A stretch of DNA of 27,270 nucleotides from a virus (taxonomy: Duplodnaviria > Caudoviricetes), in IMG/VR virus record IMGVR_UViG_3300008448_007388, positions 1 through 27,270 of that record. The stretch is one strand, 5' to 3'. A model generated the notes under the pieces. The model worked only from the letters and a program-made list of their open reading frames with translations, searched no databases and had not been told where the DNA came from. Shown here piece by piece: positions 1 through 21,176 of the stretch. Position numbers and translations under genes: made by a program. Position 1 is the first letter of the stretch. Every line of letters starts with the position of its first letter.

Positions 1-232
1 GTAAAGATTCTACTCCCTGATCCTCTAATCCAAAACAAGGTTCGCATTCAGGAGGTCGTTCTCCGTTAGTTACTTGTTTTCGTATCCTACGCATATTGTC
101 ATTGTTCCATATTTCTTCTAGTGTATTCTTAGTGATATCACCAATGGGATGACTGCGGCAGCATACTTGAATGGCTCCGTCTTCTCTAGTGGCCAACCCG
201 GTAAACGGGTGCATACAAAAGGTATTACTCAT
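1..232 (-). CDS. N-terminal twitch/SPASM-domain radical SAM protein (5' part only; runs off the window; not in the ORF track)
   Basis: ATG at 232-230 overlaps the TGA of the upstream gene (ATGA). Manual translation is open to the edge: MSNTFCMHPFTGLATREDGAIQVCCRSHPIGDITKNTLEEIWNNDNMRRIRKQVTNGERPPECEPCFGLEDQGVESL. The FCxxPF...DG...CC...IG...LEEIWN...R...CxxC pattern is a SPASM/twitch Fe-S domain. The radical SAM core would lie outside the window. Confidence 0.8.
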   Translation of the reverse strand, partial: MSNTFCMHPFTGLATREDGAIQVCCRSHPIGDITKNTLEEIWNNDNMRRIRKQVTNGERPPECEPCFGLEDQGVESL

Positions 233-1032
233 AGTCTAGATATAGGAGGACGGTATGGTTTATTTGAATAATCCCAAGACAATGCATATTTTCTAGCCTT
301 ATCACTTAATGTATTATTTGGCCATAGCCAATCTAAAAACTGTAATGCTTCCATTGGCGTAGGATGTAGATCATTATCAGGAGCTATTCTATGATTTATG
401 CACTCAACTTCAAACCATTTGTACATAGCATCCACGTTAGTAAATACATCTTGGTATAATTTAATTACATCTCGGTCATCAAAAAAATCAGCAATAGAAC
501 CACCTAGATAGATTTCTTTACTTTTTTCTCTCCAAAGTCTAAGTAAAGATTCTTTGTCATTAGATGTTTGTCTCAAGTGAGAACTGTTAAACAATTCATG
601 CCATGTAAAATTCACCCAATCACAATCTTTGTTTTTCATTATATCTTGAATCGCTTTCATATATGCCATGTCACGTACTAAGAATCCGCGGAAATCTACT
701 CCAAATCTCATGACCCATTCTTTGCCATATGTTTTTTCTTGGGTAGTGTTAGTGTCATTCAACCATACATTATTATGATATCTATCTTCTCTTTCTTTGG
801 TACTCCAAAAAATGATTACTAAATCATCTTTATTGTAGTGATATCTAGCGTCTGCTTCTATAACGCTATTGAATATGAAATGATTGCCGGCGCCGGGCAT
901 TGCCCAGTTTTGATAAAATTCAATATCTTGTCCAATTATATCAGCCCAAGTAGGCCATTTATAATTAGTAAAGCTACATCCAAAGGCAAAAAATCTCTTA
1001 TACTTTTTTGTATCAAGATTATGCATTCTCAT
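229..1032 (-). CDS. SGNH/GDSL-like hydrolase or acyltransferase-fold protein
   Basis: Block I-like FFAFGCSFT, block II-like NWAMPGAGN and C-terminal DxHP (NDLHPTP). Confidence 0.6.
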   Translation of the reverse strand: MRMHNLDTKKYKRFFAFGCSFTNYKWPTWADIIGQDIEFYQNWAMPGAGNHFIFNSVIEADARYHYNKDDLVIIFWSTKEREDRYHNNVWLNDTNTTQEKTYGKEWVMRFGVDFRGFLVRDMAYMKAIQDIMKNKDCDWVNFTWHELFNSSHLRQTSNDKESLLRLWREKSKEIYLGGSIADFFDDRDVIKLYQDVFTNVDAMYKWFEVECINHRIAPDNDLHPTPMEALQFLDWLWPNNTLSDKARKYALSWDYSNKPYRPPISRL

Positions 1033-1756
1033 TGATTGCCCATTCTCTTTCTTTACACCAAAAACATTCTCCGCAGACAGGGACCTGTTGTCCTAATTCA
1101 TATGTAGTATAATCTATTTCAGGGAACTCTCCCTCACAACTACGAGTGAGATTCAATAAACTATCTAACTGTAGTCTCTTATATTGTCTGATTACCCAAT
1201 CTTTTTCAATAAATCTAAAGGGGTGACTGACTACTTTGCCCATGTGCATAGTCAGTCTAAGATGTTGATTTGTTTCATCTGGTTCAACATCTCTTTTTGT
1301 CATACCCCCTAAGTCTACACTACGAGGATTATGAGTAACAGCATTAAAGTAAGCGTCAGCATTTTCATGGGTACAAATATATTCTGCAAAACTCTGTATC
1401 TCTATTATGTCTCCGGATACACTCTTTCCGTATTCATCAGTTAAGGTAGGGCCGGTATTTCCCCATTCTAATGCAGGGGGAATAAAGTTTTCATATCGTG
1501 TGAAATGTATGTTTTTAAAGTTATGAGACAAATACCTATACACATCTAAACTATTGTATTTTTGCCATGGTCTAGTCTTCCACATTCTAATATGACTCAG
1601 TATCAATATGTCTGTATTTAAGTTGTGTTCTGTTATGTAATTACATAACAAATACGTCAACAATGCACTATCTGCGCCGCCACTGACACTAACAGCAATG
1701 ATGTTCCAATCATGTTCAAATGGTATTTCTACCCCATCTACTATAAAATTATTCAT
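1019..1756 (-). CDS. QueC-like PP-loop ATP pyrophosphatase
   Basis: PP-loop VSVSGGADS near the N-terminus and C-terminal Zn-type motif TRSC...CGECFWCKER, as in the QueC family. Confidence 0.7.
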   Translation of the reverse strand: MNNFIVDGVEIPFEHDWNIIAVSVSGGADSALLTYLLCNYITEHNLNTDILILSHIRMWKTRPWQKYNSLDVYRYLSHNFKNIHFTRYENFIPPALEWGNTGPTLTDEYGKSVSGDIIEIQSFAEYICTHENADAYFNAVTHNPRSVDLGGMTKRDVEPDETNQHLRLTMHMGKVVSHPFRFIEKDWVIRQYKRLQLDSLLNLTRSCEGEFPEIDYTTYELGQQVPVCGECFWCKEREWAINENA

Positions 1757-2594
1757 TCTCTAAATACCTCAATAATGGGCTAACTCCAACAGGCTGATTA
1801 TCTTTTAATGCTAGATAGATACTGTTGGTTTCAGTTAAATTAAAATCTCTGCATACTCTACTATAGTTAATATTATGCTTCCACCATAGATAATCGGGTC
1901 TAACATTATCTATAAAGTATTTGGCAATGGTTATTAATGCACGATTATTCATATTAAAATCGTTCATTATTGTAACACTATCTTGGGTAGTTTGTCTACT
2001 ATATCTTAACCCAACACGATTCCAGCCTAGACCAAGACCCTTGCTAAGGCTAATGCCAACAGACTTGATGCATGGATGGCTAAAATCAAAAACAATATTA
2101 CGACAACAAGTAATCCAGGCCCCGTCGATGTGAACCGGGATATCTTTTTTAGAACATTCATATAAAATTTCCTCCATGTGTATGTGTATATTCCCCGTAC
2201 TAGGGAAGGGCATTGCTATTATTAATGGGACATTAGGTATTAAACTACCAACATCTTTAACACTACTTAACCCTAGACGATTATGATATCTATAATCACC
2301 GGTAATAGTCTGTACTAGGCTCTGCATATAGAGATTATCTATATACTGCGTACAGCCTATGATAATATCTTTACGGTTAAACTTATCTAATCCAGTTAGT
2401 GTATTTATTTGGGTGCTTTCAATATATTTACTACATTCAACTATAAAGTCACTATATTCAATATACTCGGATTTAAACTGCCCACTCAGTACATTATTGG
2501 TTAATAATTCTAAGTAACTGTCAGTTAAGGGTTGTGGTCTTTCAGTTTCTAAGTATTCACTAGTGTATTCTTTAGCCACCTTAATTCTATTCAT
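1749..2594 (-). CDS. PLP-dependent fold-type I enzyme (aminotransferase/aldolase/decarboxylase-like); start revised to ATG at 2594 (MNRIKV...)
   Basis: VHIDGAW (PLP-binding Asp) and SLSKGLG (Schiff-base Lys) followed by RVG. The revised start has a TAAATA box 5 nt upstream and removes the head-to-head overlap with the 2635 gene. Confidence 0.7.
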   Translation of the reverse strand: MNRIKVAKEYTSEYLETERPQPLTDSYLELLTNNVLSGQFKSEYIEYSDFIVECSKYIESTQINTLTGLDKFNRKDIIIGCTQYIDNLYMQSLVQTITGDYRYHNRLGLSSVKDVGSLIPNVPLIIAMPFPSTGNIHIHMEEILYECSKKDIPVHIDGAWITCCRNIVFDFSHPCIKSVGISLSKGLGLGWNRVGLRYSRQTTQDSVTIMNDFNMNNRALITIAKYFIDNVRPDYLWWKHNINYSRVCRDFNLTETNSIYLALKDNQPVGVSPLLRYLENE

Positions 2595-2599
2595 ATTAA

Positions 2600-2605
2600 T
2601 ATTTA
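2600..2605 (-). promoter_or_regulatory. T4 late-promoter-like box (TAAATA)
   Basis: Minus strand reads ctTAAATA-ttaat-ATG(2594). Confidence 0.6.
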
Positions 2606-2623
2606 AGACATAAACCCTATAAC

Positions 2624-2629
2624 TAAATA
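2624..2629 (+). promoter_or_regulatory. T4 late-promoter-like box (TAAATA)
   Basis: acTAAATA-tttta-ATG(2635). Confidence 0.6.
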
Positions 2630-2634
2630 TTTTA

Positions 2635-3306
2635 ATGCTATTGCCTACCACTTATAGTATCACCAAATCTCAGTTAGAACTTGCAAAAAATACAGATTTT
2701 GGGGACACATTCAAATCAACTATAAACAAACCCACTGGGAATTTCTTCTATGACCCGTGGATTATCGGTGATGAATATAAGGACACAGTTTGGAACGATA
2801 TATTAAACACACTACCCGTTAGTAAAGGTGAGGCTAGGGTTATATTACTTAGGCCTGGGCAATGCTATCAAAGTCATAGTGATATTGACGATAGATATCA
2901 TCTGAACATTAATGGAGATTTCAATTACTTAATAGACTTAGATAGTGAAATCATGTACCGTAACAATAATGACTGTAAATGGTATGATTTAGATACTAGT
3001 AGTAGACATACTGCAATGAACGTGGGTGAGACTGTTAGAGTGCAATTAGTTGTGCGTAAACTGTTACTGAATAATGTATTGAATGAATTTGTCAAAGTTA
3101 AACTATCATCTATAACATTAAGTCCGGACGATGCACGATACAAGTTTGATGATGTTATTAGTGGGTGGTTAAATCGTGCAAACAAAACAGGTATTATCAA
3201 CGAGTTTAATCCCTCATTAACACATGTGACATTTAACATAGAAAAAAGTTGTTTAATTGAATTAGAAAAGATTATGCCTACAGAGTTTAGTTTGGAACTA
3301 ATATGA
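2635..3306 (+). CDS. Aspartyl/asparaginyl beta-hydroxylase-like Fe(II)/2OG oxygenase with extra C-terminal domain
   Basis: RVILLRPG...HSD..DRYHLNI...HTAMNVGETVRVQL gives the HxD...H triad and the 2OG-binding Arg. Confidence 0.75.
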   Translation: MLLPTTYSITKSQLELAKNTDFGDTFKSTINKPTGNFFYDPWIIGDEYKDTVWNDILNTLPVSKGEARVILLRPGQCYQSHSDIDDRYHLNINGDFNYLIDLDSEIMYRNNNDCKWYDLDTSSRHTAMNVGETVRVQLVVRKLLLNNVLNEFVKVKLSSITLSPDDARYKFDDVISGWLNRANKTGIINEFNPSLTHVTFNIEKSCLIELEKIMPTEFSLELI

Positions 3307-3992
3307 TAGATATCTCTAAATGGCGACATTTATATAAGTTTAACTATGAAAGCGGATTAATTGGTGCCACTAACATGTTGTATACCCCGTATGTTAGCCA
3401 TGATGGGAAAACACTATGCATGTGGTATGACGAAAAAAATCCCTATCAAGCAGAGAATAGAGAACTTAGTAAAGAGTTAGTAGATTTCTTTTATCAACGT
3501 GAATTAAAGTATTTGTCATTATTGCAATCGTATTCTTGGGCCCCAAAAATAATAGATATAGAAGAAGAACATAATAAAATATACATAGAGTTTAACAATG
3601 AAACTTTAAATCATATAACTATGGATTCAAATAGAGATATTAATAAAGAGTTGCCCAATTGGAAAAAACAGATATTCTCTATCTTATCTGATATTGACCA
3701 TGCAGGGTACTACAAGTTAGCACTATACCCACATTGCTTTTTTGTCGGTGATGATAATGAATTAAAGACTATGGATTACTACAGTGTAGTGGAAAAAGAT
3801 AACTGTTGTATAGAACGTAGTAAAATTGAAGGTATTATTGGTTCTGAAAGTACCGGACGATTTGACGATTCTACTGTAGGAGAAATGATTGATTTTGAAA
3901 TATTTTTTAAAACAACCATGATGGAACATTTAGGACAGCGTTGGGCTGACAACCCCTTCCCAGAATTTTATAATAGATTATATGCAAAATAA
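3303..3992 (+). CDS. Protein-kinase-like fold protein with non-canonical catalytic motifs (paralogue of 12815..13504)
   Basis: alphaC-like YQRELKYL, APKIIDI..KIYIEF hinge, YKLALYPHCFF at the catalytic-loop position and LKTMDYY at the DFG position. Confidence 0.55.
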   Translation: MIDISKWRHLYKFNYESGLIGATNMLYTPYVSHDGKTLCMWYDEKNPYQAENRELSKELVDFFYQRELKYLSLLQSYSWAPKIIDIEEEHNKIYIEFNNETLNHITMDSNRDINKELPNWKKQIFSILSDIDHAGYYKLALYPHCFFVGDDNELKTMDYYSVVEKDNCCIERSKIEGIIGSESTGRFDDSTVGEMIDFEIFFKTTMMEHLGQRWADNPFPEFYNRLYAK

Positions 3993-4572
3993 CTCAGCAC
4001 ACTTTGACAAAAGACTATTAGCATTAGAAAGTTCTATTTTTCTAAGTACCTATAGAAGAATTAACTGGAATGAAGTAATTGTATCTTTGCTAGAAAAAGA
4101 AGGGAGTGCCGTTACAACTGATCCATCTAGATGGAACACGGACACCACAGGCTATAACGAAATATATGCAATGTGGAAGAATGCAAACTTCAACAGTGAT
4201 AGTATTAAATGGATTAATTATTATCCCAGAGTGCATTTTGATCAGAGCCTAGTAGATGATATAGCAGATTATTTAAATGTAAATGTACACAGAGCATGGA
4301 TTAGCAGAATTGATCCAGGCTATTTTGCACCAAAACATTGGGACGTAGATGATAACGAGAACGAATACTTACTAAAGGGTGATATATCTAGATATAGCAT
4401 TCTAATGGGGGACCCAACACATGGGCACATCTTTATACTAGGGGATGACTATCTATTCAATTGTCCAAAAGGCTCTATTTTTAAGTGGAATAATCATCGT
4501 GATTGGCATAGTGGCATTAATGCAGGAATGGTGCCTAAATTCATGTTTCACTTAATAGCATACAATAAATAA
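3982..4572 (+). CDS. Fe(II)/2OG oxygenase-fold protein (paralogue of 5117..5638 and 6231..6743)
   Basis: IDPGYFAPKHWD...GHIF...WHSGINAGMVPK: HxD...H triad. Confidence 0.7.
   Translation: MQNNSAHFDKRLLALESSIFLSTYRRINWNEVIVSLLEKEGSAVTTDPSRWNTDTTGYNEIYAMWKNANFNSDSIKWINYYPRVHFDQSLVDDIADYLNVNVHRAWISRIDPGYFAPKHWDVDDNENEYLLKGDISRYSILMGDPTHGHIFILGDDYLFNCPKGSIFKWNNHRDWHSGINAGMVPKFMFHLIAYNK
4566..4571 (+). promoter_or_regulatory. T4 late-promoter-like box overlapping the upstream stop codon
   Basis: aaTAAATA-aatt-ATG(4576), the same spacing as at the divergent junctions. Confidence 0.5.
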
Positions 4573-4575
4573 ATT

Positions 4576-5130
4576 ATGTTTTACAAATTAGATATTCAAA
4601 TAGATACAGATAGAGCAAAAAAATATTATGCTGATTTGGAAGAAAAGTATCAGCATTTAAAATGGGAAGCTACTTTAGGCAAGAGAACTATATATGGATG
4701 GTCTATCCATATTTTAAATGGTTTTTTGCCCCCGTTTGGATTTTATGACAAAAATACTGAGCCTTTAGGTGTAGAGAATTACTATAAATCAGAAATTCAT
4801 TTTGATTGGGCGCAAGACATACTAAACATTATTCCCTATGGTTACAGGGCCGGCGTTGGGGTAAGTCCGGCCGGTACTATAGTACCCAAACACATTGATG
4901 AAAATTGGCGTGATATGATGAGATTACATATTCCTATTATTACTAATAAAGATTATGTATGGCATACTCATCTAGGTGAACTACATATGGCAGAAGGCAG
5001 TGTATATTTAGTTGATACTTCTTTTGAGCATTCTACTATAAACAACGGAGCTGAACCTAGGGTTCATTTTGGAATGAACGTACCTAGATCAATGTGTCAT
5101 TTATTGTGTCCTGAACTTAGTCATGCATAG
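4576..5130 (+). CDS. Aspartyl/asparaginyl beta-hydroxylase-like Fe(II)/2OG oxygenase
   Basis: PAGTIVPKHID...RLHIPIITN...YLVDTSFEHSTINNGAEPRVH, a typical AspH-family signature. Confidence 0.85.
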   Translation: MFYKLDIQIDTDRAKKYYADLEEKYQHLKWEATLGKRTIYGWSIHILNGFLPPFGFYDKNTEPLGVENYYKSEIHFDWAQDILNIIPYGYRAGVGVSPAGTIVPKHIDENWRDMMRLHIPIITNKDYVWHTHLGELHMAEGSVYLVDTSFEHSTINNGAEPRVHFGMNVPRSMCHLLCPELSHA

Positions 5131-5638
5131 TAATTTGTAAAGTGTATCTAGTATTATAACCAATATTAACACATCCATGAACAATCATAGGGTCACTCCA
5201 TTCATATAAATCACCGGCTTTATAATTAGATATCATTTGGTCATCCCAAACAAATATATGGCCAGGCTCAAAATCTTGTAAGTACATAGTATAGCGTACT
5301 GGATTTTTAACTTCTACTAGATGAGGATCAATATGCATCGCTTGCATTTGTCCTGGATTTAGTTTAACAAACCACCAGAATACATATTTTCTACTATCAG
5401 GCAATTCAGGCAATTCAACATCAAAATTAAACATATCTTTACTATTCTTATTAAACTGTTGAAAGTCGTGATTTTTATTACTATAACCGGGTCGTGCTTT
5501 TTCTTTGTATTCTTCTAATAAAGGATGTCCAGACCATCGTTCGGGTTGCCATACATAAGCTGTATCTCCCTCATGTGCCTTAAGATGATTCATTAAATCA
5601 TCTGTGATCCAATACGAATAATTATCTATATATCTCAT
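5117..5638 (-). CDS. Fe(II)/2OG oxygenase-fold protein
   Basis: KLNPGQMQAMHID...EPGHIF...HGCVNIGYNTRYTLQIT. Confidence 0.75.
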   Translation of the reverse strand: MRYIDNYSYWITDDLMNHLKAHEGDTAYVWQPERWSGHPLLEEYKEKARPGYSNKNHDFQQFNKNSKDMFNFDVELPELPDSRKYVFWWFVKLNPGQMQAMHIDPHLVEVKNPVRYTMYLQDFEPGHIFVWDDQMISNYKAGDLYEWSDPMIVHGCVNIGYNTRYTLQITMHD

Positions 5639-6234
5639 ACAGTTGCAACCAAATTACTCATATAATCTAAGTATTGGTAAGGACTACTTATTTCTATGTG
5701 TACTAAGTCAGTTGTTCCGTCATTTCGCAACTCAGACAATGAATCCATAGTGTTTAATAAAATAGTTCCCGGGACCAATGGTACTCTCACCCCCGGGTTA
5801 TAGTGAGTTATTAAATATGCGTCCGGATTACTAATGATAGGAATGTAAATTCTAAAATGTTTAGGGGGTGTAGGGAACCATGGTCCAAGATAATTTCCAC
5901 TTGGATATACAAATAAAAAAGTTCTAAACGGATCTTTTACTAAGTTCATTATTCTTTTTACAAATCCAAAAGCTAGCACAGTATCATTAAAATACACAGG
6001 GCCCTCGTTATGTGGATCTAAATCACAATGATATTTGAAGTCTATGTCTTTGTAAATGGTTTGTATCCCCCAACCATACATCTTATCTAATTTGTTTTTA
6101 GGGTCTATAACTGAAGGTTCATTGTGGTCTTTAGTATACATCCATTTCTTAGATTGGTGTTCATTAGTTAGTGTTGTGTAGTATTCTACCGCTTCAATTG
6201 GGTCATATTTTAAATTAATAAGTGGAACTATCAT
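5635..6234 (-). CDS. AspH-like protein lacking the iron ligands (degenerate paralogue of 4576..5130)
   Basis: Aligns by eye with the 4576 protein (KW...YGWxI...RIYIPIISN...NDGTTDLVH), but HID is replaced by WFP and the distal His and Arg are missing. Confidence 0.6.
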   Translation of the reverse strand: MIVPLINLKYDPIEAVEYYTTLTNEHQSKKWMYTKDHNEPSVIDPKNKLDKMYGWGIQTIYKDIDFKYHCDLDPHNEGPVYFNDTVLAFGFVKRIMNLVKDPFRTFLFVYPSGNYLGPWFPTPPKHFRIYIPIISNPDAYLITHYNPGVRVPLVPGTILLNTMDSLSELRNDGTTDLVHIEISSPYQYLDYMSNLVATV

Positions 6235-6743
6235 AATCTTTGTACATAGGTTGAAAAATGAAATGTGAGTCTAGTATTATTACCTATATTACAAGCACAA
6301 TGGATTGCTTGACTGTCAGGGTAACAATAAATATCACCTTTTTTGTAATCGACTAACGCTTGATTTTCATACATGAAAATATGACCCGGTTCCCAATCTT
6401 GCAAAGCCATCCAATATCTTTTGCAATCATATATATTAGGATCTTGTGTATGAGGATCTCTGTGTATAGGCATAAAGTTTCCAGGATTCATTTTAATACC
6501 CCACCATAATGAATCGATTCCATTGTTAATTTCAAACGGTAAACTTACGTTAAACGGGAAAGTATCCGGTTCATAAATGTACCAATATGTTTGACTAAGG
6601 TCGTAACCGTGTTCCTTTGCTTTTCTAAATTCTTCTGAGTCCGGATTCCGACCGCCTCCTGGCCTAGGTGTGCCGTCGTTGGCTAGCAGGTAATCTGTGT
6701 ATTCTTGTTTTATCCAAGTTTTGTAATTCCCAATGTAAATCAT
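6231..6743 (-). CDS. Fe(II)/2OG oxygenase-fold protein
   Basis: KMNPGNFMPIHRD...EPGHIF...HCACNIGNNTRLTF. N-terminus MIYIGNYKTWI parallels MRYIDNYSYWI of 5117..5638. Confidence 0.75.
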   Translation of the reverse strand: MIYIGNYKTWIKQEYTDYLLANDGTPRPGGGRNPDSEEFRKAKEHGYDLSQTYWYIYEPDTFPFNVSLPFEINNGIDSLWWGIKMNPGNFMPIHRDPHTQDPNIYDCKRYWMALQDWEPGHIFMYENQALVDYKKGDIYCYPDSQAIHCACNIGNNTRLTFHFSTYVQRL

Positions 6744-7366
6744 ATTAAATCCTGATAGTTGAAAACATGGGCCGGTGTTTCGTATATACCATCTTCTCTA
6801 AAACGAATAATAAAAACTAATCTAGTTTTGTCACTTTTATTTTCAACGTTGTGATAAATGTCTGATTTGATTAGAGTAATATCAGTCAGGGTGGTTGATC
6901 CGATAGGATCAACCTTAACATTGTCTTTCACAAATGAGATATAAAAATTATACGGTGGTTCTGGTCTTACCCTGTTCACTATTCGTTCATCTTCATCACT
7001 AACATCATCATTTTGATACCAATAATTGACTGTATTTTCTGTGTTAGCGATAGGTATAACCATAACCCATTGATTTGCCCTTAGTCGATTACTGGGTACA
7101 TTCTCATTGTTTGTTTTAAGCCCATCTATATGAAGTTTTAGATTAGTGCAGCCGGGTAAAAAACAAGTACTGGTTTCTACTATCTCTGTAAGCACACGCG
7201 GCATTATAAAACTTTTAAGTAACGGAAACTTATCAAAATCCATTTGTACGAAATATTCATGTACAGCCTCCGGCTGTAATAATTCAGGATGATTATCAAA
7301 AAATGTTAATACTTCATTTTGAATTTGTGGTAAGATAGGAACATTGATTTTTTGATACAAGTACAT
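6740..7366 (-). CDS. Fe(II)/2OG oxygenase-fold protein
   Basis: LHIDG...VIPI...YHNVENKSDKTRLVFIIRF. Confidence 0.7.
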   Translation of the reverse strand: MYLYQKINVPILPQIQNEVLTFFDNHPELLQPEAVHEYFVQMDFDKFPLLKSFIMPRVLTEIVETSTCFLPGCTNLKLHIDGLKTNNENVPSNRLRANQWVMVIPIANTENTVNYWYQNDDVSDEDERIVNRVRPEPPYNFYISFVKDNVKVDPIGSTTLTDITLIKSDIYHNVENKSDKTRLVFIIRFREDGIYETPAHVFNYQDLI

Positions 7367-9211: not shown

Positions 9212-9235
9212 AATTATGTACTCAATATCTTAAAA

Positions 9236-11135: not shown

Positions 11136-11737
11136 ACGATTAATTTAGAATAGGGTTCAACAGTCATAATATTATAATTGTATTTTTTTATTTGATTTTT
11201 TACTTCATAACTTGTATATGCGGCTCTTAATGAGTTTACTACATCTTGTTTGTATATTGGATCATCACAACATATACTATTAATTCTTTCATCTGATGGT
11301 CTATCAATATCAATAACCATAATGGAATCCCCTAAACTATTAATTGTTTCCCAAAATTGTTCGGTATCTTCTATATGATGTAGTACACGATTAGATAGTA
11401 CTACATCGTATTTGCCACAGACCGTTAATAAGTCATCTTGGATTATTGTTATTCTATTTTCTAAATTGTTTTTTGTTATATTTTCTATGGCTATTTCAAT
11501 CATTGCAGAAGAAGATTCATAACATACAAAATTTAATTTAGAAAATGCTTGAGCCAATGCTATGACAAAATTACAAGATCCTGAACCTAAATCCACTACA
11601 CTACCAGTGGATATACCGATTAATTCTGTATATAGGTTAACATATTCATTTAACGATTCTGGATTAGAAGCATGTGTATTATAGCTCCTGCATTGTTCAA
11701 TGTCATCCATTGTAGATTTAGGTTCAGGGATTCTCAT
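11120..11737 (-). CDS. Class I SAM-dependent methyltransferase
   Basis: Motif I VVDLGSGSC, SSAMIEIA and YDVVLSNRVLHHI. Confidence 0.85.
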   Translation of the reverse strand: MRIPEPKSTMDDIEQCRSYNTHASNPESLNEYVNLYTELIGISTGSVVDLGSGSCNFVIALAQAFSKLNFVCYESSSAMIEIAIENITKNNLENRITIIQDDLLTVCGKYDVVLSNRVLHHIEDTEQFWETINSLGDSIMVIDIDRPSDERINSICCDDPIYKQDVVNSLRAAYTSYEVKNQIKKYNYNIMTVEPYSKLIVYHTK

Positions 11738-13504: not shown

Positions 13505-14034
13505 TTTTATGGCATCGTGACTTAGATTTATCTGACTTTTATATTAAAGCAGAAGAACGTGGGTTTTATAATAATGCAAATGAAAAAAATTTGATTCAAT
13601 CTATAGCAAATGAACGTGAATGGCAAGTATGGATTTTATACTATAATGATTCTGCTGTAGGGTGTGTAGCCGCACATAGTATAGAAGAAGGTTATAGAAT
13701 ATGTACTAGAACTTGTATTCTTACTGATTTAATACCCACTAACTCATTGCGTACTCGTAATCAAATCATTACTCATCAACATATCACAGCACAATTCTTT
13801 ATACCCAAATGTATTGAATGGGTTAATGGAAAGGGTGACATGTATATTACCACACATCCTAGCAATGTAGGAACACAACGATTAGTACATAATATATGGG
13901 CGCCGTCATTAGTAAAGACTAATGTATTGTTTAAAGCATTTGATAAAGAATATAGAGGTCATACACAGACTTTTTGGAAGCTCAATTCTGACGAATTCCT
14001 AAGTCAACTTAGTAAAGTTAAATCATGGCAGTAA
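13501..14034 (+). CDS. GNAT-like N-acetyltransferase fold protein (start 13501 by ATGA coupling; 13492 possible)
   Basis: VWILYYNDSAVGCVAAH...YRICTRTCIL strands and MYITT, a GNAT-like topology at about 180 aa. No clean acetyl-CoA binding loop is visible. Confidence 0.45.
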   Translation: MILWHRDLDLSDFYIKAEERGFYNNANEKNLIQSIANEREWQVWILYYNDSAVGCVAAHSIEEGYRICTRTCILTDLIPTNSLRTRNQIITHQHITAQFFIPKCIEWVNGKGDMYITTHPSNVGTQRLVHNIWAPSLVKTNVLFKAFDKEYRGHTQTFWKLNSDEFLSQLSKVKSWQ

Positions 14035-15326
14035 CTCCATTTATAAAACGCGGTAGTAAAAACGTATGGTGTATAGTAGATAATCATGCGAAATTTTCTA
14101 ATGGTTGGGCAAGAGAAATATCAATTAACTTATCTGACCATATGATTTTCAAAATTGATCTTTTTGGATATGACATATATATCGGCGATGATGAAGATGA
14201 ATTGTTAAGAACAGTATCAATAGATTATGAGTATGCTATTGTTGTTGCTTCTGGAACTTCGTTTACATTATCTGATAAACTTTTTCCGTTAATAGAAGAT
14301 TTATTGAATAAGGATTTTTTCATTGCAGGGCATATACTAGATCGCGGGGCAGAATATCCTGAATTACACCATCAATTTTATGTAATTAATCTAGTAGAAT
14401 ATAGAAAATGTCATTGCCCTATAATAGGTCCGGGTAAGGAATTTAATAGTTTAGATATGCCCTGGCATGGACATCATATAATGCGTATAGCAGAATATAA
14501 GACAATAGATATAGGTACAGCGATTCGTAATGCAAAAAGATATCTATACTATGAACATGAGCATGTATTTTTAAAAGAGTTATCTAACATATACCATGAT
14601 CAATTTTTTGCTAACAACTTTTTTGCATCATGGAATTCAGATAAGTTGTATACTGATATTGCATTCGCCGGGCCCGTCGATCAATACGTAACAGTAGGTA
14701 TAGGTTTGAATTGGATTAAAAATTTAGAAATTATTGGATTCACTAAAGATTCTAATGTTGTATTCACAGACATAAATCACAATTGTCTGGTATATATGAA
14801 GAAATTAATTGAAACATGGGACGGAATGAATTATACTCAGTTCTACAAAGATAACAGTCCAATGGGTATTAACGGGGAGTCCCCTATACCACAATCTTAT
14901 TATGATAAAACTCAATCTGAGTGGGAACAGTTTATATCTACCTTTGATGATTGGGCATCAATATGGAATCAAGTACGACAGCTAAAATTTAAGTATATAC
15001 TTACCAACTATATGTCAAATTACAACTTTGATTGGATCGACTCCGAAAAACGGACAGTTATCAATTTAAGTGACTTATTTACGCATACACCCTATATATT
15101 TGTTCATAGTTTGAAATATAGGATTGCTAGTGAAAACAAATTATTCAAAATGCTAGTAGAAAAAGATCCTGAAATAACATTGATGTTGACCTCACGGGCA
15201 GTTAATGGATTTGCAGAAAATAATCAATTAATAGGTAACCGACTGATAGTTGGTAAAGTAAAAGATTTTGCATTAACAGACATTAAAGATTTAAGGTGTC
15301 CGCCCTGGCATAAAAATGATTGGTAA
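14025..15326 (+). CDS. Hypothetical two-domain protein (possible glycosyltransferase-like N-terminus and Rossmann/SAM-binding-like C-terminus)
   Basis: 433-aa ORF coupled to the upstream gene. YVTVGIGLNW...VVFTDIN...INLSDLF resembles a degenerate SAM-binding fold. The CDS is secure but the function is not. Confidence 0.35.
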   Translation: MAVTPFIKRGSKNVWCIVDNHAKFSNGWAREISINLSDHMIFKIDLFGYDIYIGDDEDELLRTVSIDYEYAIVVASGTSFTLSDKLFPLIEDLLNKDFFIAGHILDRGAEYPELHHQFYVINLVEYRKCHCPIIGPGKEFNSLDMPWHGHHIMRIAEYKTIDIGTAIRNAKRYLYYEHEHVFLKELSNIYHDQFFANNFFASWNSDKLYTDIAFAGPVDQYVTVGIGLNWIKNLEIIGFTKDSNVVFTDINHNCLVYMKKLIETWDGMNYTQFYKDNSPMGINGESPIPQSYYDKTQSEWEQFISTFDDWASIWNQVRQLKFKYILTNYMSNYNFDWIDSEKRTVINLSDLFTHTPYIFVHSLKYRIASENKLFKMLVEKDPEITLMLTSRAVNGFAENNQLIGNRLIVGKVKDFALTDIKDLRCPPWHKNDW

Positions 15327-15327: not shown

Positions 15328-16188
15328 TTATAAGTTAATTGGGTAGTCAAACATTGCTCTATGCAATAATCGTTTGTCCATATTATTAAATGCCCATCGT
15401 TTGTGCAAACCCATGCGATTGTCAGATATAACTATGTCACCTAATTCCCAATTATGATGATAGCAATATTTTTCCTGTGTCATATGTTCTGCTAGTTTAG
15501 AAAATATTTTTTTACTTTCATCTCTTGTTAAGGCATTTATATGATGAGTATTATAAAAAGAGAACATTAGGTGCTTTTTACCCATTAGGCTAGTACATAC
15601 AATCGGTTGTGTATAACCTTCAAATTCTTCACCAGGAGCCCACATTGTACCGTCATCATCTTTGCTGAAGCGGCTTACATTAAAATCTACATATCGTGTC
15701 ATGGTAACAGTTGATTTTTCTAAAAAATTTTTAGTTTCTTCATCTAAATCTTCGTATGCCATGATACTATTAAGCCAAGAAGTTTTAGATCCTTCTACAC
15801 CCTCAACGGCATGTAGCCAAATTAACGCTACTTTATTCTTTTGCATTGACCAATGAAAATCCAAATGCCATGCCATTTCTTCTTTGTGGCTAGATATTCC
15901 TCCTACTTGATATTCATTTTTTTTACCACCTACTCTGAGTAATTTTCCATTAGTACCGGCGACTTCTAATAATTTCATTTGTTCGTCACTAACGCTCAAA
16001 AAAGAACCAATATCTCTGAACATACTAACTACTCGTAACTCATCAGATAATGATAATTTTTGTTTTTTTATTACTACTAAGGTATGTGTAGCTATCAATT
16101 TAGAAATGACATTTATGTCAGCTTGAGTAGCCAATGCTAAATCAAACTCAGTTATAATGGGTGCCCAATTGACATAATCAATTTTCAT
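15328..16188 (-). CDS. TauD/TfdA family Fe(II)/2OG dioxygenase
   Basis: LVVIKKQKLS, WHLD, GSKTSW and YHHNWELGDIVISDNRMGLHKR...RLLHR. Confidence 0.9.
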   Translation of the reverse strand: MKIDYVNWAPIITEFDLALATQADINVISKLIATHTLVVIKKQKLSLSDELRVVSMFRDIGSFLSVSDEQMKLLEVAGTNGKLLRVGGKKNEYQVGGISSHKEEMAWHLDFHWSMQKNKVALIWLHAVEGVEGSKTSWLNSIMAYEDLDEETKNFLEKSTVTMTRYVDFNVSRFSKDDDGTMWAPGEEFEGYTQPIVCTSLMGKKHLMFSFYNTHHINALTRDESKKIFSKLAEHMTQEKYCYHHNWELGDIVISDNRMGLHKRWAFNNMDKRLLHRAMFDYPINL

Positions 16189-17053
16189 TTAGATAGTCCT
16201 GATCAGGGAAATCAAATACCATACGATGCAATACTCTTGTGTAGATTTGCTCAAATCTCCAGCGTTTATGAATGCCTAGCCATTGTTCACTTAACACTAT
16301 ATCTCCGTCTTCCCAATCATGATGATAGCAATATTTTTCTTGAATAGTGTGTTCAAATAAAGGTTTGGCTATCTCCAATGATTCTTCCCTAGACATTCCT
16401 TCAAATTTTTCTAGTTGTAATAGAGAAAAATATAAGCCTGTTTTTCCTGCATTATTTGTATGTATAATATTTGGCGTAAAATTTTCTATTACAAATTTAC
16501 TTTTACCAAACGTATCACTATCTTTATATTCAGTAGTATGTTGCATTCCACCATAATATATGCATTTTAAATCATGCAGTTTATGTTTAGTGTCACTATC
16601 TAAATCATTGTATGATAGTATATTATTGTTCCAACTAGTTCTAGAACCTTTTGTACCTTTGACTCCATACAGCCAAACTATAGGAGATCGATCTTCTTTA
16701 TACGGGTGATTGCAATGCCATTGCATTTCATCTACATGGCCTGCAATACCCGGCTTACCGTGTTCGTTTAATTCGCCTGACACCCTGCAAACAATTCCAG
16801 TAGGGTCTTGAGTAATGTCTGCTACACAGTCCATAAAAAATTCATCTTCAGGTTTAAACAGAGGATTAGGGTTTTTAAACATTTTAGCAATTCTAACTTG
16901 GTCAGCTACTGTAAGATGTTGACCTCTTACAACAACACATGTATGTTTAGCAATCAGTCTTGCAATTTCTAATATGTTTTCTTGTGTAGCCGTATTGAAG
17001 TCAAAATCTTCTAATAATGCAGTCCATCCGTTTTCATGTATTTTGTATTTCAT
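16178..17053 (-). CDS. TauD/TfdA family Fe(II)/2OG dioxygenase (HxN variant)
   Basis: VVVRGQHLT, WHCN, GSRTSW and YHHDWEDGDIVLSEQWLGIHKR...RVLHR; tandem paralogue of 15328..16188. Confidence 0.85.
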   Translation of the reverse strand: MKYKIHENGWTALLEDFDFNTATQENILEIARLIAKHTCVVVRGQHLTVADQVRIAKMFKNPNPLFKPEDEFFMDCVADITQDPTGIVCRVSGELNEHGKPGIAGHVDEMQWHCNHPYKEDRSPIVWLYGVKGTKGSRTSWNNNILSYNDLDSDTKHKLHDLKCIYYGGMQHTTEYKDSDTFGKSKFVIENFTPNIIHTNNAGKTGLYFSLLQLEKFEGMSREESLEIAKPLFEHTIQEKYCYHHDWEDGDIVLSEQWLGIHKRWRFEQIYTRVLHRMVFDFPDQDYLNEN

Positions 17054-17808
17054 AAATTAAATCCCAATGTAAGAATATCATCTTGTATTAAACTACTATC
17101 TAATTCATTAACCGCTTCTATAAATCTAAACACATTATCAACTGGTAATGTTTTTAATATGTCTAGTTTAATGTTCCACCATTTAGTTTCCAAGAGTTGT
17201 TCTTTGATTTTGTCTGGAAATCTATCTCTTAATGGCTTAGCTGGTATACCACCAGCTATAGTATATGGTTCTATATCAGTAGACACAACCGCATTTGCCG
17301 CAATCACGGATCCTGTACCGATAGTTGCATCTGGCATGACTACAATACCATCACCCAAAAACACATCGTTTTCTATAATTACTGGTTCTTGAATGATATC
17401 TAATTTTACATTATCCGGAAAATTTAATAATATCTTTTCTTCTTCTGAGTAATTAGATTGATGAGCCATTATAGTATCTGAATTTATGCTCACTCCAGAG
17501 ATGTTATGCATTCCGGCAGCAATAGTACATCTACGTCCTATTCCACTATGTCTGCCCATAAAAATGTTATCACGCATATAGCCACCGTCTCTGATGCTAG
17601 AGTATGCACCTATAAATATTCTGTTGTGATTGCTTTTAAAATTTTGAGACCAATTCATTGATCCTTTTTCAAATAAAGTGCCGTTAATATACTCTAAATT
17701 AGTATGTCGTATATTATATAATGGCAAGTCATCTGTTTTTAACTCTATGTCCTGTGACAATTTATTTTCAAGGAACATGGACAATTTATGTTCTATACTA
17801 TGATTCAT
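17050..17808 (-). CDS. Hexapeptide-repeat (CatB/Vat-related) O-acetyltransferase; start revised to ATG at 17808 (MNHSIE...)
   Basis: PVIIENDVFLG...IGTGSVIAANAVVSTDIEPYTIAGGIPAKPLRDRF...KWWN. TATAAATA lies 5 nt before the revised start. Confidence 0.85.
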   Translation of the reverse strand: MNHSIEHKLSMFLENKLSQDIELKTDDLPLYNIRHTNLEYINGTLFEKGSMNWSQNFKSNHNRIFIGAYSSIRDGGYMRDNIFMGRHSGIGRRCTIAAGMHNISGVSINSDTIMAHQSNYSEEEKILLNFPDNVKLDIIQEPVIIENDVFLGDGIVVMPDATIGTGSVIAANAVVSTDIEPYTIAGGIPAKPLRDRFPDKIKEQLLETKWWNIKLDILKTLPVDNVFRFIEAVNELDSSLIQDDILTLGFNL

Positions 17809-17857
17809 AGCTATATTTATATCTCTACTTTTGGGTACGTACATAAATATAGCTATG
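17806..17857. repeat. Perfect 15-bp inverted repeat, each arm being a late-promoter box, 5 nt and an ATG
   Basis: CATAGCTATATTTAT (17806-17820) and ATAAATATAGCTATG (17843-17857) with a 22-nt spacer. The boxes are TATAAATA (minus, 17821-17814) and CATAAATA (plus, 17842-17849). Confidence 0.9.
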
Positions 17858-18424
17858 GATTACTCAAAGGTTATAGCAATAGAAGTTGACATTGACATAG
17901 ACTATGATATGATGCGTGAAGAATTTCTAAGTATTTTAGACAGTCAATGGAATAATCATTCATCGTATCTACCCGGATACAATCATGTAACTTACAAATC
18001 TTTATTTTTAACAAAGAATAATCATGGGGTTTTTGATGATTTTAAAGTAGCAAAAACTATACCACATTCAGAATGGTATTGGGATGATAGTATTAATATG
18101 CCTTATACCAAAACAGTTATAGATTCGTTACCGTCAAAATCTATTGGTATAGTTAGAATAATGGTAACCAACGGCGTATTACCATTACATACTGATTGCA
18201 ACTCAAATACTTCGGTTGATCATACATATAGGTTAGGATTAACTATTTCTCCCATGTGTAGTGATAAGTTGCAATTAGGTAATACATTCATTCCATATAA
18301 AGCACTATTTTTTAATGATTGTGTTCCTCACGGATTTTTATCAAGTGCTGACACACAAATGAGTGTTAGAATTTTTGGTGATTTTGAATATGAGAAATTT
18401 AATATAAAAAGGATCTATGCATGA
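17855..18424 (+). CDS. Fe(II)/2OG oxygenase-fold protein (AspH-like); start revised to ATG at 17855 (MDYSKV...)
   Basis: YTKTVIDSLP...VRIM...LPLHTD...FFND..PHG: HxD...H. Confidence 0.65.
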   Translation: MDYSKVIAIEVDIDIDYDMMREEFLSILDSQWNNHSSYLPGYNHVTYKSLFLTKNNHGVFDDFKVAKTIPHSEWYWDDSINMPYTKTVIDSLPSKSIGIVRIMVTNGVLPLHTDCNSNTSVDHTYRLGLTISPMCSDKLQLGNTFIPYKALFFNDCVPHGFLSSADTQMSVRIFGDFEYEKFNIKRIYA

Positions 18425-18879
18425 AAAATGTTGAGTATCTGGATTTAGATAGAATTCCAGATTATCTAATTGTTGATATATACCAGACTATTAGAAATAC
18501 CCCTCCCAAAGAAAGACACTCAGTTCCTGAAGGAACTGACGCTGAAAAATATAATGCTTGGAATAGTATTAAAGTAAGTGATAAGTTAAAAGAATTTGTA
18601 AAAACTTTATTTGACTTTGAGCATGATGTGCATATTTTTGTACTGTCAGGTGATTTGCCTGTACATAAAGACAATACTAGAAATGTTGCCTATAACTATG
18701 TTTTAGAAACGGGCGGGGCAACAACTAACTTCCATGATGAAGATAAAGTACTAATAGAAGAAAATCATATTCAACCGTTTATATGGCATAAACTAAACGT
18801 AGCTGAGTTTCATAGTGTGTTGATACCAAATCCACCAAGAATTGTAGTAAGTGTGTCAGTGCATTGGAAAACAGATTAA
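18421..18879 (+). CDS. Small Fe(II)/2OG oxygenase-fold protein
   Basis: LPVHKD...AYNYVLETGG..T.F...WHKLNVAEFHSV...RIVVSV. Confidence 0.7.
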   Translation: MKNVEYLDLDRIPDYLIVDIYQTIRNTPPKERHSVPEGTDAEKYNAWNSIKVSDKLKEFVKTLFDFEHDVHIFVLSGDLPVHKDNTRNVAYNYVLETGGATTNFHDEDKVLIEENHIQPFIWHKLNVAEFHSVLIPNPPRIVVSVSVHWKTD

Positions 18880-19523
18880 ACGTTTTTCCAAGTATTCCCA
18901 TTAATACCATCTAACTTTCTTTTTAAGAATTTTTTAGTAGATACATCAAAGATATCCCCGGTGTGCCAATTATTGATTACACATTCGCCTTCATCAGTAA
19001 AGTCTACAACATAATCTGATTTAGGTGTAAAGTCGAATGCTTCACTGTTATAGCCTATGAAAACAGGGGGAGGCATTTCTGTCATTCCATACCAGTTAGC
19101 AACTAGTTTAACACCTTTATTTAGAAAATCATTTATCATTTGCTGATTTACTTGTCCACTTCCAGTTACCATGTAACGGACACAACTCATGTCCATATTG
19201 TTCCATTCTACTGTTTCTTTTAATAATTCCCAATGACGAGGTATAAGTGCGATGTATGTAGGTCTAAATTTATTGAATTTTTGTAAGTAATCAGATGCTT
19301 CAAATTTAGCTGACACTAGTTTTGCTCCTGCTCTATATGCAGGCATCGTAGTAACTGTATAGTGTGCTATTGTATTACCAGGAAATACATCTAAGACTAT
19401 ATCTTCACTACTTAATCTAATTTCTTTAATAGACCTTTGTATAGATGATTCAATATAATCCCATGTATGGATAACTGTTTTTGGTGCTTTAGTTGTACCA
19501 GACGTTAGTAATGTTAAACTCAT
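18876..19523 (-). CDS. Miniature AMP-binding (ANL superfamily) adenylation protein; start revised to ATG at 19523 (MSLTLL...)
   Basis: A3 P-loop LLTSGTTKAPK at the very N-terminus, A5 NWYGMTE, GEC and A7 WHTGD; only about 215 aa. Confidence 0.8.
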   Translation of the reverse strand: MSLTLLTSGTTKAPKTVIHTWDYIESSIQRSIKEIRLSSEDIVLDVFPGNTIAHYTVTTMPAYRAGAKLVSAKFEASDYLQKFNKFRPTYIALIPRHWELLKETVEWNNMDMSCVRYMVTGSGQVNQQMINDFLNKGVKLVANWYGMTEMPPPVFIGYNSEAFDFTPKSDYVVDFTDEGECVINNWHTGDIFDVSTKKFLKRKLDGINGNTWKNV

Positions 19524-19524: not shown

Positions 19525-20370
19525 TTAAAACACAAATACGTATTTCATTATTCTAGCAATAGTATCGTTTGCCTCTTCAGTAGGGTTGACCGGGCACAGA
19601 TAATCAGGTTGTTCTTTCTCAATAGGTACAGCTAGTATATTACTTACTCCGCTTAGTCCAAACGGATTAATATCGTTTTCTTTAAATGTTTTATTAATTG
19701 GTTTATGTCTGCATACTACCCAATATTGTTTGTAGTCTCTAGAATCTAACCATTTATAACATTTTTCCCAAACTTCCTTATTAAGTGCTTCATAGAAAAT
19801 AACAGGACGTTGATTCTTAATAGTCTTTGCCGCGCCTTTAAGCACATCTAATTCTGCACCCTCTACATCAATCTTCATTAACGTAACTTCTGTTAAATCT
19901 TCTAAGTTGTCTAGTTTGATTACTTGTACCTCAATACCTTCGTTATTAACTCCTACTTCACCATAGTTGCCTGATATGTTTTCATCAAAGTTGCTTATAG
20001 TCATAGTGCCATTCTTACTACCTATTGCAGCATTGTATATCCTAATAGGTTTGTCTTTACAGTTATATGCGGCTACTGAAAAGTGATTAGGGTGTGGTTC
20101 AAAAGCTAGCACAGGGCACCCTACTTGTTGATATATTGCTAAGGCATGATATCCAATATTAGTACCTATGTCTAAGTAAGTAGATTCGTGCGTAAGATAT
20201 CTAGACATAACTTGTACCTCTGCATCACAGTACTCGCCAAAGAATAGTATCGATTGACTTACTACAGAATCATTTTTGTAGACTGCCATTTTACCTACTT
20301 TACTATCAGTAACTACTAAGTTTGGGGACAACTGTTCAAGAGTCTCGGTGATGTTTAAATGTTTTGTCAT
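19525..20370 (-). CDS. FkbM family methyltransferase
   Basis: YLDIGTNIGYH, LAFEPHP and LMKIDVEGAELDVLKGA..TI...RPVIFYE. Confidence 0.92.
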   Translation of the reverse strand: MTKHLNITETLEQLSPNLVVTDSKVGKMAVYKNDSVVSQSILFFGEYCDAEVQVMSRYLTHESTYLDIGTNIGYHALAIYQQVGCPVLAFEPHPNHFSVAAYNCKDKPIRIYNAAIGSKNGTMTISNFDENISGNYGEVGVNNEGIEVQVIKLDNLEDLTEVTLMKIDVEGAELDVLKGAAKTIKNQRPVIFYEALNKEVWEKCYKWLDSRDYKQYWVVCRHKPINKTFKENDINPFGLSGVSNILAVPIEKEQPDYLCPVNPTEEANDTIARIMKYVFVF

Positions 20371-20378
20371 TATATTGT

Positions 20379-21176
20379 TTAGAATAGTATTTTATAATTT
20401 GCAAGACGTTGTACCATATTAGAATAATCTTCTCCTGCTAATACTTCAACTAAATCGTTTGGCTGCATATTTTCTTCAGGCACAGCTAAAATACTGCTAA
20501 CGCCTGCCTTTCCAAACAAATCTTCTTCTGACTTTTTAAAGTTCTCACCAATTGGTTTAGTTAAACAGGTGACCCAGTATTGTTTATATTGTTTACTATT
20601 TAAAAAAGTATAACAATCAGACCAAACTGTCAAGTCTATTGCTTGATACATTATAACTGGTCTATATTTCTTAATGATTTTAGATGAACCTTTTAATATC
20701 TCAAATTCATGACCATTAGTAGTAATCTTCATAACATTTATCTTTTCAGATAGTTCTGATATGTCATCTAGTTTTTTACAAGGAACTTCAATATCATTCA
20801 ACAATGTAACTGTGCCTTTTGCGCTACTAAGTGCAGTATGGAATAATTTAATTGGTTTGTTTTGACAGTTAAACGCAGACAATGCAAAGTGATCAGGATT
20901 AGGTTCAAAACCATATACTTTGCATTTAGTCAATTGATTAATAGCAACACATCTATATCCTATATTTGATCCAATATCTACAAAAATAGATTCTTCCTTC
21001 AAGTATGAAGATAGCATATACAATTCAGCACTGTATAATTCTCCGTATCCGATTAGGGCAGTACTAGTAACGCTATCAGTATTAGCCCTATACACACACA
21101 GTTCCCCAAATTTAGTGTCAGTGGTACCTAAATTAGACTTAAGTTTGTCAAAATGTTCTTGTAATTCGTAACTCAT
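20379..21176 (-). CDS. FkbM family methyltransferase, degenerate paralogue
   Basis: FVDIGSNIGY and GFEPNP are present, but KITTNGHE replaces KIDVEGxE. Shares YKQYWV.C..KPI...FK...F...GVS.ILAVP.E with its neighbour. Confidence 0.8.
   Translation of the reverse strand: MSYELQEHFDKLKSNLGTTDTKFGELCVYRANTDSVTSTALIGYGELYSAELYMLSSYLKEESIFVDIGSNIGYRCVAINQLTKCKVYGFEPNPDHFALSAFNCQNKPIKLFHTALSSAKGTVTLLNDIEVPCKKLDDISELSEKINVMKITTNGHEFEILKGSSKIIKKYRPVIMYQAIDLTVWSDCYTFLNSKQYKQYWVTCLTKPIGENFKKSEEDLFGKAGVSSILAVPEENMQPNDLVEVLAGEDYSNMVQRLANYKILF

Follow-up and report, generated by a model that had tools for sequence, protein, structure and literature searches.

A conserved island of radical SAM enzymes, oxygenases and a QueC-fold ligase in freshwater T4-like jumbo phages: a candidate system for virion decoration

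Results and discussion

A tailoring island with a conserved core

We analysed a 27,270-nucleotide stretch of viral DNA (positions 1 to 27,270 of the IMG/VR record IMGVR_UViG_3300008448_007388; hereafter the window), the first 21,176 positions of which are filled by an island of genes coding mostly for modifying enzymes, among them radical S-adenosylmethionine (SAM) enzymes and iron/2-oxoglutarate (Fe/2OG) oxygenases. The island contains a core that is conserved among freshwater T4-like jumbo phages. Of the explanations that we considered for it, the one that we favour, tentatively, is that the island builds an edited sugar unit late in infection and transfers it to virion proteins.

Positions 1–21176 hold 29 tightly packed open reading frames (ORFs, named below by their first position), with ~98% of the sequence coding and the largest internal gaps measuring 37–40 nt. 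An earlier note on this DNA had described about 30 consecutive, mostly modifying-enzyme genes, and the island turned out to be even longer than that. The IMG/VR contig G001 (40,791 bp), identical to the window over positions 1–20000, prolongs it ~13 kb leftward by 11 further genes, so that the whole island comprises 40 genes over ~34 kb, 11 of them coding for radical SAM enzymes. Seven of the latter lie in the left flank (two with an N-terminal twitch domain and one B12-binding), together with a methyltransferase-like gene, two genes that are SGNH-like by motif and a two-domain GT2-like glycosyltransferase (GT) gene, which closes the island (weak Pfam match, E 3.5e-5) 493 nt before the end of the contig. 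On the right side, the island is followed by genes for a SleB-like hydrolase, a 677-aa protein, PAAR, glutaredoxin and nrdAB; profile hidden Markov models (HMMs) confirmed all of these except the 677-aa protein, including the nrdAB, PAAR and SleB neighbours already named in the note. The GC content is uniform along the window and the relatives are phages; nothing points to a cellular or chimeric contig. The sample source is given as lake water in the run listing. The relatives are T4-like jumbo phages of ~330–360 kb (near-complete ones, 331–360 kb); one of them, G007, encodes a major head protein, portal, baseplate and late sigma factor and shows 61% identity in the 677-aa flank protein. The nrdA of the window is closest to Xanthomonas and Ralstonia phages (53–59%).

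The conservation of the island was measured around its QueC-fold gene (ORF 1019), which has 317 confirmed relatives in IMG/VR (ORF 7366 has 483). We took the best 80 of these 317, removed the window itself and recorded the neighbours within 10 kb in the remaining 79 loci, a set that includes near copies and in which many loci are clipped by contig ends. Most frequent near the anchor were several radical SAM families (F9 in 78 of the 79 loci, F13 in 77, F5/F12 in 75, F10/F11 in 74, F3 in 60; the first four of these in 74–78), followed by the families of hydroxylase ORF 2635 (74), a kinase-fold protein (64), methyltransferase F6 (63), oxygenase ORF 3982 (59) and a pyridoxal phosphate (PLP) enzyme (55), and the same twitch gene follows the anchor in 74 loci. 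Less frequent were ORF 7366 (49), ORF 14025 (33) and the Tes-like (20), GT2-like (17), TauD (8) and FkbM (2) genes. Among 79 loci anchored on ORF 7366 instead, a second kinase-fold gene was present in 76 and a GNAT-like gene in 67. Gene order and strand are shuffled even among close relatives. From these co-occurrence counts and the shuffled order, the families can be sorted into a conserved core, a further module and a periphery that is reshuffled; most of the right half of the window is variable. The note had proposed a synteny comparison in search of a conserved core, and nine families in 55–78 of the 79 anchored loci provide one, which refutes a random pile of genes. Its idea of a dedicated modification system stands, but the 29 genes do not form a single fixed pathway: those for the TauD, FkbM, hexapeptide and adenylation proteins are accessory.

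Probable late promoters at the heads of transcription units

The T4-type late promoter motif TAAATA is depleted in the window as a whole (35 occurrences versus 71 expected) and precedes seven of the nine strand-block heads (manual count). Over the 79 loci, it is 38-fold enriched just upstream of starts (215 of 1547 ORFs), with a peak gap of 4–5 nt, making late expression likely. Both features of T4-type late genes are present, TAAATA at unit heads and, in relative G007, a late (gp55-like) sigma factor. With hand-picked gene sets in relative G011, TAAATA was found within 80 nt of 13/17 structural, 13/20 island and 5/14 replication heads, and at a gap of 4–8 nt before two structural, nine island and no replication heads; structural and replication heads differed at p 0.03. 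The late expression claimed in the earlier note is probable from these promoter positions, and island transcription is likely to be partly leaderless. Two back-to-back TAAATA pairs, at 2595..2634 (boxes at 2600–2605 on the minus strand and 2624–2629 on the plus strand) and at 10364..10388 (each box 4 nt before an ATG), lie 4–5 nt before their ATGs and imply leaderless divergent transcripts.

Radical SAM enzymes and the core families

All four radical SAM genes previously counted in the window were confirmed by HMM. The gene at its edge (1..232, minus strand) is the N-terminal part of a core enzyme, complete in G001 as a 417-aa N-terminal-twitch radical SAM protein, whose family is found in 77/79 loci. 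It passes the curated cut-off of 170 for NF033640 with 344 bits, as do two left-flank genes with 384 and 333 bits; members of this family occur in all five related phage records, and none of 14 control genomes passes. The likeness consists in these scores of 333–384 bits, but the family names a domain order only, to which the island adds oxygenases, the QueC-fold ligase and GT folds within 40 genes. The twitch domain matches BtrN (E 2.7e-4). In G011 all 15 radical SAM matches fall in the island, which terminates at IscA/IscU, and IscU/IscA genes flank the island in both G007 and G011.

The three remaining radical SAM genes of the window (two at 8153..10363 and one at 11734..12771, all on the minus strand) code for shortened Tes-like enzymes. 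They share an N-terminal zinc ribbon and a radical SAM core with GDGT-MAS/Tes (PDB 7TOL, E 1.2e-20), but the match covers residues 3–158 only and these two parts make up the whole protein (345–375 aa versus 526), with a single CxxxCxxC and few or no C-terminal cysteines. The lack of a full-length match and their scores of 64–74 bits against the NF045702 cut-off of 450 place them outside the Tes/GDGT-MAS family.

The QueC-like call for the core anchor (ORF 1019, 1019..1756, minus strand) proved right for the fold but not for the signature motifs. Its predicted structure (pLDDT, the predicted local distance difference test, of 93) is that of a PP-loop enzyme, with QueC (TM score 0.54) and Cap9 (0.49) as best matches and tRNA-modifying PP-loop enzymes among its fold neighbours. 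An SGGxDS loop and a CxnCxxCxxC zinc site were present in all 30 QueC-fold sequences aligned, the first spacer being 20 residues long and not 8, and a PF(x)4K motif in 29 of them. The loop and the cysteine site are shared with QueC, Cap9 and QatC (PF06508), whose motifs we took from the accessible part of PMC13329287; in contrast, the canonical QueC substrate motifs YxQxHxxE, VPxRN and YPDC were each found in 0/30 sequences, as were the QatC D(x)4R(x)7WxR and the Cap9 Y/FxQ(x)5E and YxDC motifs, and the Pfam score is under the cut-off. We predict from this structural model that ORF 1019 is a distinct adenylating ligase. It overlaps a PLP fold-type-I enzyme gene (1749..2594, minus strand; core, 55/79 loci), the ATG of which, at 2594, lies 5 nt after a TAAATA; the note's PLP call was upheld by a predicted structure with TM 0.85 to an aminotransferase I/II cluster.

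On the opposite strand, the core hydroxylase ORF 2635 (2635..3306, plus strand; 74/79 loci) is a Fe/2OG oxygenase with an extra C-terminal domain. Its profile matches Cpz10 (PDB 7V4F) with E 1.5e-19 over ~97 residues, followed by proline cis-4-hydroxylase, which suggests hydroxylation of an amino-acid moiety (predicted). It keeps counterparts of Cpz10 Y112, H115, D117, H123, H160 and R170, that is, the HxD...H triad, the 2OG arginine and the neighbouring Tyr and His. Cpz10 is the beta-hydroxylase of caprazamycin biosynthesis (PMC9814697, in its accessible text), with which ORF 2635 shares these iron, 2OG and neighbouring residues. However, the extra domain, the lack of annotated glycyluridine transaldolase or aminoribose genes and the many unstudied relatives set ORF 2635 apart. 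Cpz10 is only its nearest solved member: 295 clusters match with E <= 1e-10 and ~130 of the 150 listed outscore its 73.7 bits, and the names of ten Cpz10-like database proteins were uninformative.

Two further core families follow on the plus strand, a protein-kinase-fold protein (3303..3992) and an oxygenase-like protein (3982..4572; 59/79 loci). Together with the second kinase-fold protein (12815..13504, plus strand), the former represents the two kinase-like genes of the earlier note. The fold is weakly supported (PDB profile E 2.8e-4), but the catalytic Asp was found in 0/31 aligned members: all 31 have Ser, Ala or Thr at the catalytic HxD Asp column and Cys or Ser at the downstream Asn column. 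To judge from these replacements, the proteins probably bind rather than phosphorylate.

Unevenly supported oxygenases and the accessory genes

We counted the same 13 Fe/2OG-fold genes as the earlier note, with uneven support: Pfam names four (ORFs 2635, weakly, 4576, 15328 and 16178) and the other nine depend on their own profiles or motifs. ORFs 3982, 5117 and 6231 are linked to Pfam-named oxygenases by their own profiles, whereas for ORFs 6740, 7366, 10389, 17855 and 18421 the call is the HxD...H motif alone. The AspH-family oxygenase ORF 4576 (4576..5130, plus strand) has a TAAATA 4 nt upstream and is followed on the minus strand by four small Fe/2OG-fold genes (5117..7366, namely 5117–5638, 5635–6234, 6231–6743 and 6740–7366), the second of which lacks HxD at the expected place. 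ORF 7366 (7366..8172, minus strand), a putative Fe/2OG oxygenase, is a highly conserved HxD...H protein found together with the second kinase-fold protein and the GNAT-like protein (13492..14034, plus strand; motif only, no HMM match); no PDB profile matched it, and hhalign did not connect it to the 2635 family.

The remaining oxygenase genes are a Fe/2OG-fold accessory gene (10389..11135, plus strand; motif), two accessory TauD-family dioxygenases (15328..17053, minus strand; Pfam) and two Fe/2OG-fold genes identified by motif (17855..18879, plus strand, comprising 17855–18424 and 18421–18879, with TAAATA 5 nt before the ATG at 17855). One of the TauD proteins (16178–17053) has HxN in place of HxD. 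The HxN variant was seen in 14 of the 23 TauD family members examined, self copies included.

Pfam confirmed the three methyltransferases listed before, an accessory class I SAM methyltransferase (11120..11737, minus strand) and two accessory FkbM-family enzymes (19525..21176, minus strand). Among the three proposed acyl-transfer folds, it confirmed the accessory hexapeptide-repeat acetyltransferase (17050..17844, minus strand) but not the GNAT-like protein or the accessory SGNH-like protein (229..1032, minus strand; 16/79 loci), which are motif calls with no HMM match. The adenylation enzyme (18876..19523, minus strand) is likewise supported by Pfam, though only 215 aa long. Short adenylate-forming enzymes of this kind (210–222 aa) lack the usual N- and C-terminal parts and are intact in 25 other contigs, where the next gene is usually GNAT-like. 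Sequence profiles of the PDB were uninformative for five families (QueC-fold, PLP, left-flank methyltransferase, 7366 and 14025).

Glycosyltransferase folds and neighbourhoods

ORF 14025 (14025..15326, plus strand; 33/79 loci) has a predicted structure (pLDDT 87) with a GT-A-fold domain at residues ~11–189 and a class I methyltransferase fold at ~190–420. For the N-terminal domain, the top row was the capsid glycosyltransferase of Paramecium bursaria chlorella virus 1 (PBCV-1; PDB 2P6W, Z 10.9, root-mean-square deviation 3.7, 168 aligned residues), and A197 of Sulfolobus turreted icosahedral virus matches it at Z 10.2. The C-terminal domain gave, besides its methyltransferase fold, weak rows to lysyl hydroxylase LH3; an aminocarboxypropyl transferase, which we also considered, was backed by neither Pfam nor fold comparison. 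The fusion with a methyltransferase is reminiscent of chlorovirus A064R. An AspH-family gene adjoins the ORF 14025 family in 25 of its 33 loci, although not in this window, a pairing that would fit an order of hydroxylation, glycosylation and methylation.

Glycosyltransferases also accompany twitch radical SAM genes elsewhere. In G007, G011 and G015, N-twitch radical SAM genes lie among the GT2-like and, by motif, GT8-like genes of an operon, which in G007 and G011 includes a carbamoyltransferase and comes, on the same strand, after two ~300-aa Thr/Gly-rich structural-like ORFs. The cultured Vibrio phage K566 (14962–24423) has four twitch-like radical SAM genes alternating with GT8, GT4 and GT8 beside a fibre-like ORF, and in the cultured Ralstonia phage RsoM2USA a single such gene has SGNH-like genes on one side and a carbamoyltransferase on the other. 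Both cassettes are reduced, with 24–25% identity to the window twitch gene. Phage capsid glycosylation has a precedent in mycobacteriophages (PMC11256854, citing Freeman 2023, in its accessible text); among virus-encoded virion glycosylation systems, we found none reported with radical SAM arrays.

No scaffold gene in the island

No island gap exceeds 40 nt, which leaves no room for a precursor, and none was found in the 13-kb left flank. PP-binding carrier domains were detected in none of four relatives (three of them 93–100% complete) as against 11 of 14 controls, the carrier motif was absent from the loci examined, and Pfam scans of 181 of the 310 called G011 ORFs gave no nonribosomal peptide synthetase or polyketide synthase domains. 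The earlier observation that no such synthase, carrier or precursor accompanies the genes hence extends to the island, the left flank and, for the carrier, the four relatives. The note had suggested reading the left flank for a precursor, which its third candidate substrate, a peptide or small molecule, placed to the left of the window; that reading brought the GT2-like gene and, over 13 kb, no precursor.

A possible virion decoration system and its rivals

The overall interpretation of the earlier note is partly supported, as a dedicated, conserved and probably late system that lacks a scaffold, but not as a single fixed pathway. Its candidate substrates fared differently: virion glycans gained from the left-flank GT2-like gene, the GT-A fold in the window and the twitch radical SAM genes between GT genes of cultured phages, and host lipids lost ground with the partial Tes match, the few or missing C-terminal cysteines, a core AspH-like enzyme with Cpz10 as its nearest solved relative and the missing carrier. 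In the pathway that we propose, a nucleotide-linked sugar would first be oxidised, epimerised or deoxygenated by the twitch and related radical SAM enzymes, which phage IscU/IscA would supply. Its amination would fall to the PLP enzyme, and the QueC-fold ligase would couple an acid to the amine through an adenylate. Hydroxylation by Cpz10-like oxygenases would affect either the amino-acid part or an acceptor residue; GT-A proteins (the left-flank GT2-like protein and ORF 14025) would transfer the unit; and differences between strains would come from accessory methyl-, acetyl- and carbamoyltransferases and from extra oxygenases. A more daring version, which we regard as doubtful, is that of a scaffold-free phage pathway in which about ten unstudied radical SAM enzymes, together with Cpz10-like hydroxylases and a QueC-fold ligase of a new kind, make a hybrid sugar/amino-acid (or nucleoside) unit not known from cells, hung by GT-methyltransferase fusions on hydroxylated virion proteins, with the shuffling periphery acting like phage serotypes.

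Several observations weigh against virion decoration. Its main weakness is that the core can be remote from the GT operon and that the chemistry is read from genes alone. Core and GT operon are separable, a GT2-like gene lying within 10 kb of the anchor in 17 and ORF 14025 in 33 of the 79 loci; in G014 every GT2-like match is ~85 kb from the nearest N-twitch gene and the GT operon has no N-twitch gene, while G006 (72% complete) gave no GT2-like match at all. The GT-A fold that the N-terminal domain of ORF 14025 has in common with PBCV-1 2P6W comes with 8% identity, GlmU and other nucleotidyltransferases lie within 1 Z of the 2P6W row, practically a tie, and no DxD was seen in the domain consensus. 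The window contains no nucleotide-sugar dehydratase, the contig stops on the left before any structural gene, and TAAATA frequencies at island and replication heads did not differ significantly in the hand-picked G011 sets (Fisher p 0.16). Cpz10, which among solved structures stands closest to the core hydroxylase, has a nucleoside antibiotic and not a glycan as its target.

This last point leads to the foremost rival, rather unlikely in our view, namely that host metabolites are turned by the core enzymes into a free small molecule of nucleoside or amino-acid origin (an antibiotic-like, signalling or counter-defence compound), for which a scaffold gene would be unneeded. The Cpz10 match with its conserved key residues speaks for it, as does the use, in the accessible part of PMC9814697, of a uridine monophosphate dioxygenase, PLP enzymes and a kinase in caprazamycin pathways, the fold of ORF 1019 being nearest to QueC and the core radical SAM enzymes scoring weakly to viperin-like, MoaA and BlsE models. 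Yet Cpz10 is outscored by most listed clusters, the scores to the viperin and MoaA models fall well short of the cut-off, the TauD genes are accessory (8/79), no catalytic Asp is left in the kinase-fold proteins and the island has no transporter. We consider it unlikely that the island remodels host envelope lipids or lipopolysaccharide late in infection, for instance to exclude other phages: to the Tes-like radical SAM and AspH-family enzymes one can add the short adenylate-forming enzyme, the gene for which usually precedes a GNAT-like one, and fatty-acid desaturase genes in some relatives, but the Tes match stops at residue 158, no carrier domain was found in the four relatives, the adenylation and desaturase genes are accessory and, by reading, the window ORFs show no evident membrane anchor.

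Hypermodification of phage DNA or tRNA bases after replication, possibly with deazaguanine made elsewhere in the genome, appears slightly less likely again. Radical SAM, PLP, kinase and acetyltransferase enzymes all take part in the known thymidine pathways (PMC8989533, in its accessible text), but the kinase of the known pathway is a P-loop enzyme, and none is annotated in the window. The tRNA-modifying enzymes among the fold neighbours of ORF 1019 also favour this option, against which stands the absence of all three QueC substrate motifs in 30/30 family members. A cassette beside DNA polymerase B in G011 (63,480–78,231) contains FolE, a QueD-like protein (146 aa), a GT-B-like protein (360 aa), a UDP-sugar dehydrogenase, a phosphoribosyltransferase, split HldE-like genes and, identified by eye, a QueE-like ORF and a 539-aa ORF with a DSGGYQ motif, which we take to be DpdA-like, and no canonical QueC; a TGT-family search gave nothing in five relatives. 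Judging by its genes, this cassette may yield a glycosylated or carboxy-deazaguanine base. It lies, however, ~160 kb from the island, and the QueC-fold anchor of G011, at 241.8 kb, is not linked to queD/queE (QueD at 26.7 kb, the QueE-like ORF at 77.4 kb); DNA modification thus seems to have its own locus. That the island is a hypervariable parking lot of late genes with several unrelated targets is improbable: order and strand shuffle among close relatives and at least three modules are separable (the QueC core; 7366/12815/13492/Tes; the GT operon), but nine families recur around the anchor and the same twitch gene follows it in 74/79 loci. A RiPP-like system (ribosomally synthesised and post-translationally modified peptide) with its precursor encoded elsewhere would account for the abundance of radical SAM/SPASM-type and B12 enzymes, of oxygenases and of methyltransferases; it is very improbable given that, within the island, to which the search for a precursor was confined, no gap fits one and that maturase models score far under cut-off. 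In sum, we rank a virion glycan ahead of a free metabolite, envelope remodelling, nucleic acid modification, a loose collection and, last, a RiPP.

Distribution, other arrays and published relatives

Queries with the 677-aa flank protein, a Tes-like gene, the QueC-fold gene and ORF 4576 found no match in the phage collection, and the QueC-fold profile found no confirmed relative in the genome collection. There, the twitch gene detected two loci, on a contig of a Bacteroidota bin and in a distant Elusimicrobia radical SAM array. The former, a 2.6-kb contig, has a gene 69% identical to the island twitch gene, arranged as in the phages, and is probably mis-binned phage DNA; the latter (41–14549) is a cellular array of ~9 TPR-fused or SPASM-type radical SAM genes near queD/queC/queE. 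Other unusual features of these phages include the 677-aa protein itself (window 21807–23840, between PAAR and the SleB-like hydrolase), which is 50–94% conserved among relatives and has no confident family. In G007, very large RCC1-repeat proteins (1981 and >4200 aa; 112,381–131,900) close the structural block and are followed by methyltransferase, oxygenase and GT genes, and a ubiquitin-like domain protein (16525–16959; Pfam E 5.9e-8) is encoded in the same jumbo phage. A second array in G006 (32,553–48,400), directly after tail-fibre-like genes, has ~12 small oxygenase-like and four tryptophan-halogenase-like genes (by eye).

A literature search, with limited reach into subscription journals, found no paper describing the island. 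The nearest published cases, as far as the accessible texts go, are multi-radical-SAM Campylobacter phages (PMC2853527), thymidine hypermodification clusters (PMC8989533) and mycobacteriophage capsid glycosylation (PMC11256854). The Campylobacter phages CP220 and CPt10 are large lytic phages whose 11–12 radical SAM genes parallel those of the island, and the accessible text of PMC2853527 describes an interchangeable five-gene module of unknown function that carries an amidinotransferase. This amidinotransferase distinguishes them from the island, and three island queries to the phage collection did not match them.

A large and abundant phage group thus devotes about one tenth of its genome to iron-hungry tailoring enzymes. 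Their role can in part be tested now, since the cultured phages K566 and RsoM2USA carry reduced twitch cassettes. If virion decoration is the true function, the island would represent the most elaborate phage surface chemistry that we found described and would offer radical SAM enzymes, oxygenases and ligases from several families not studied before.

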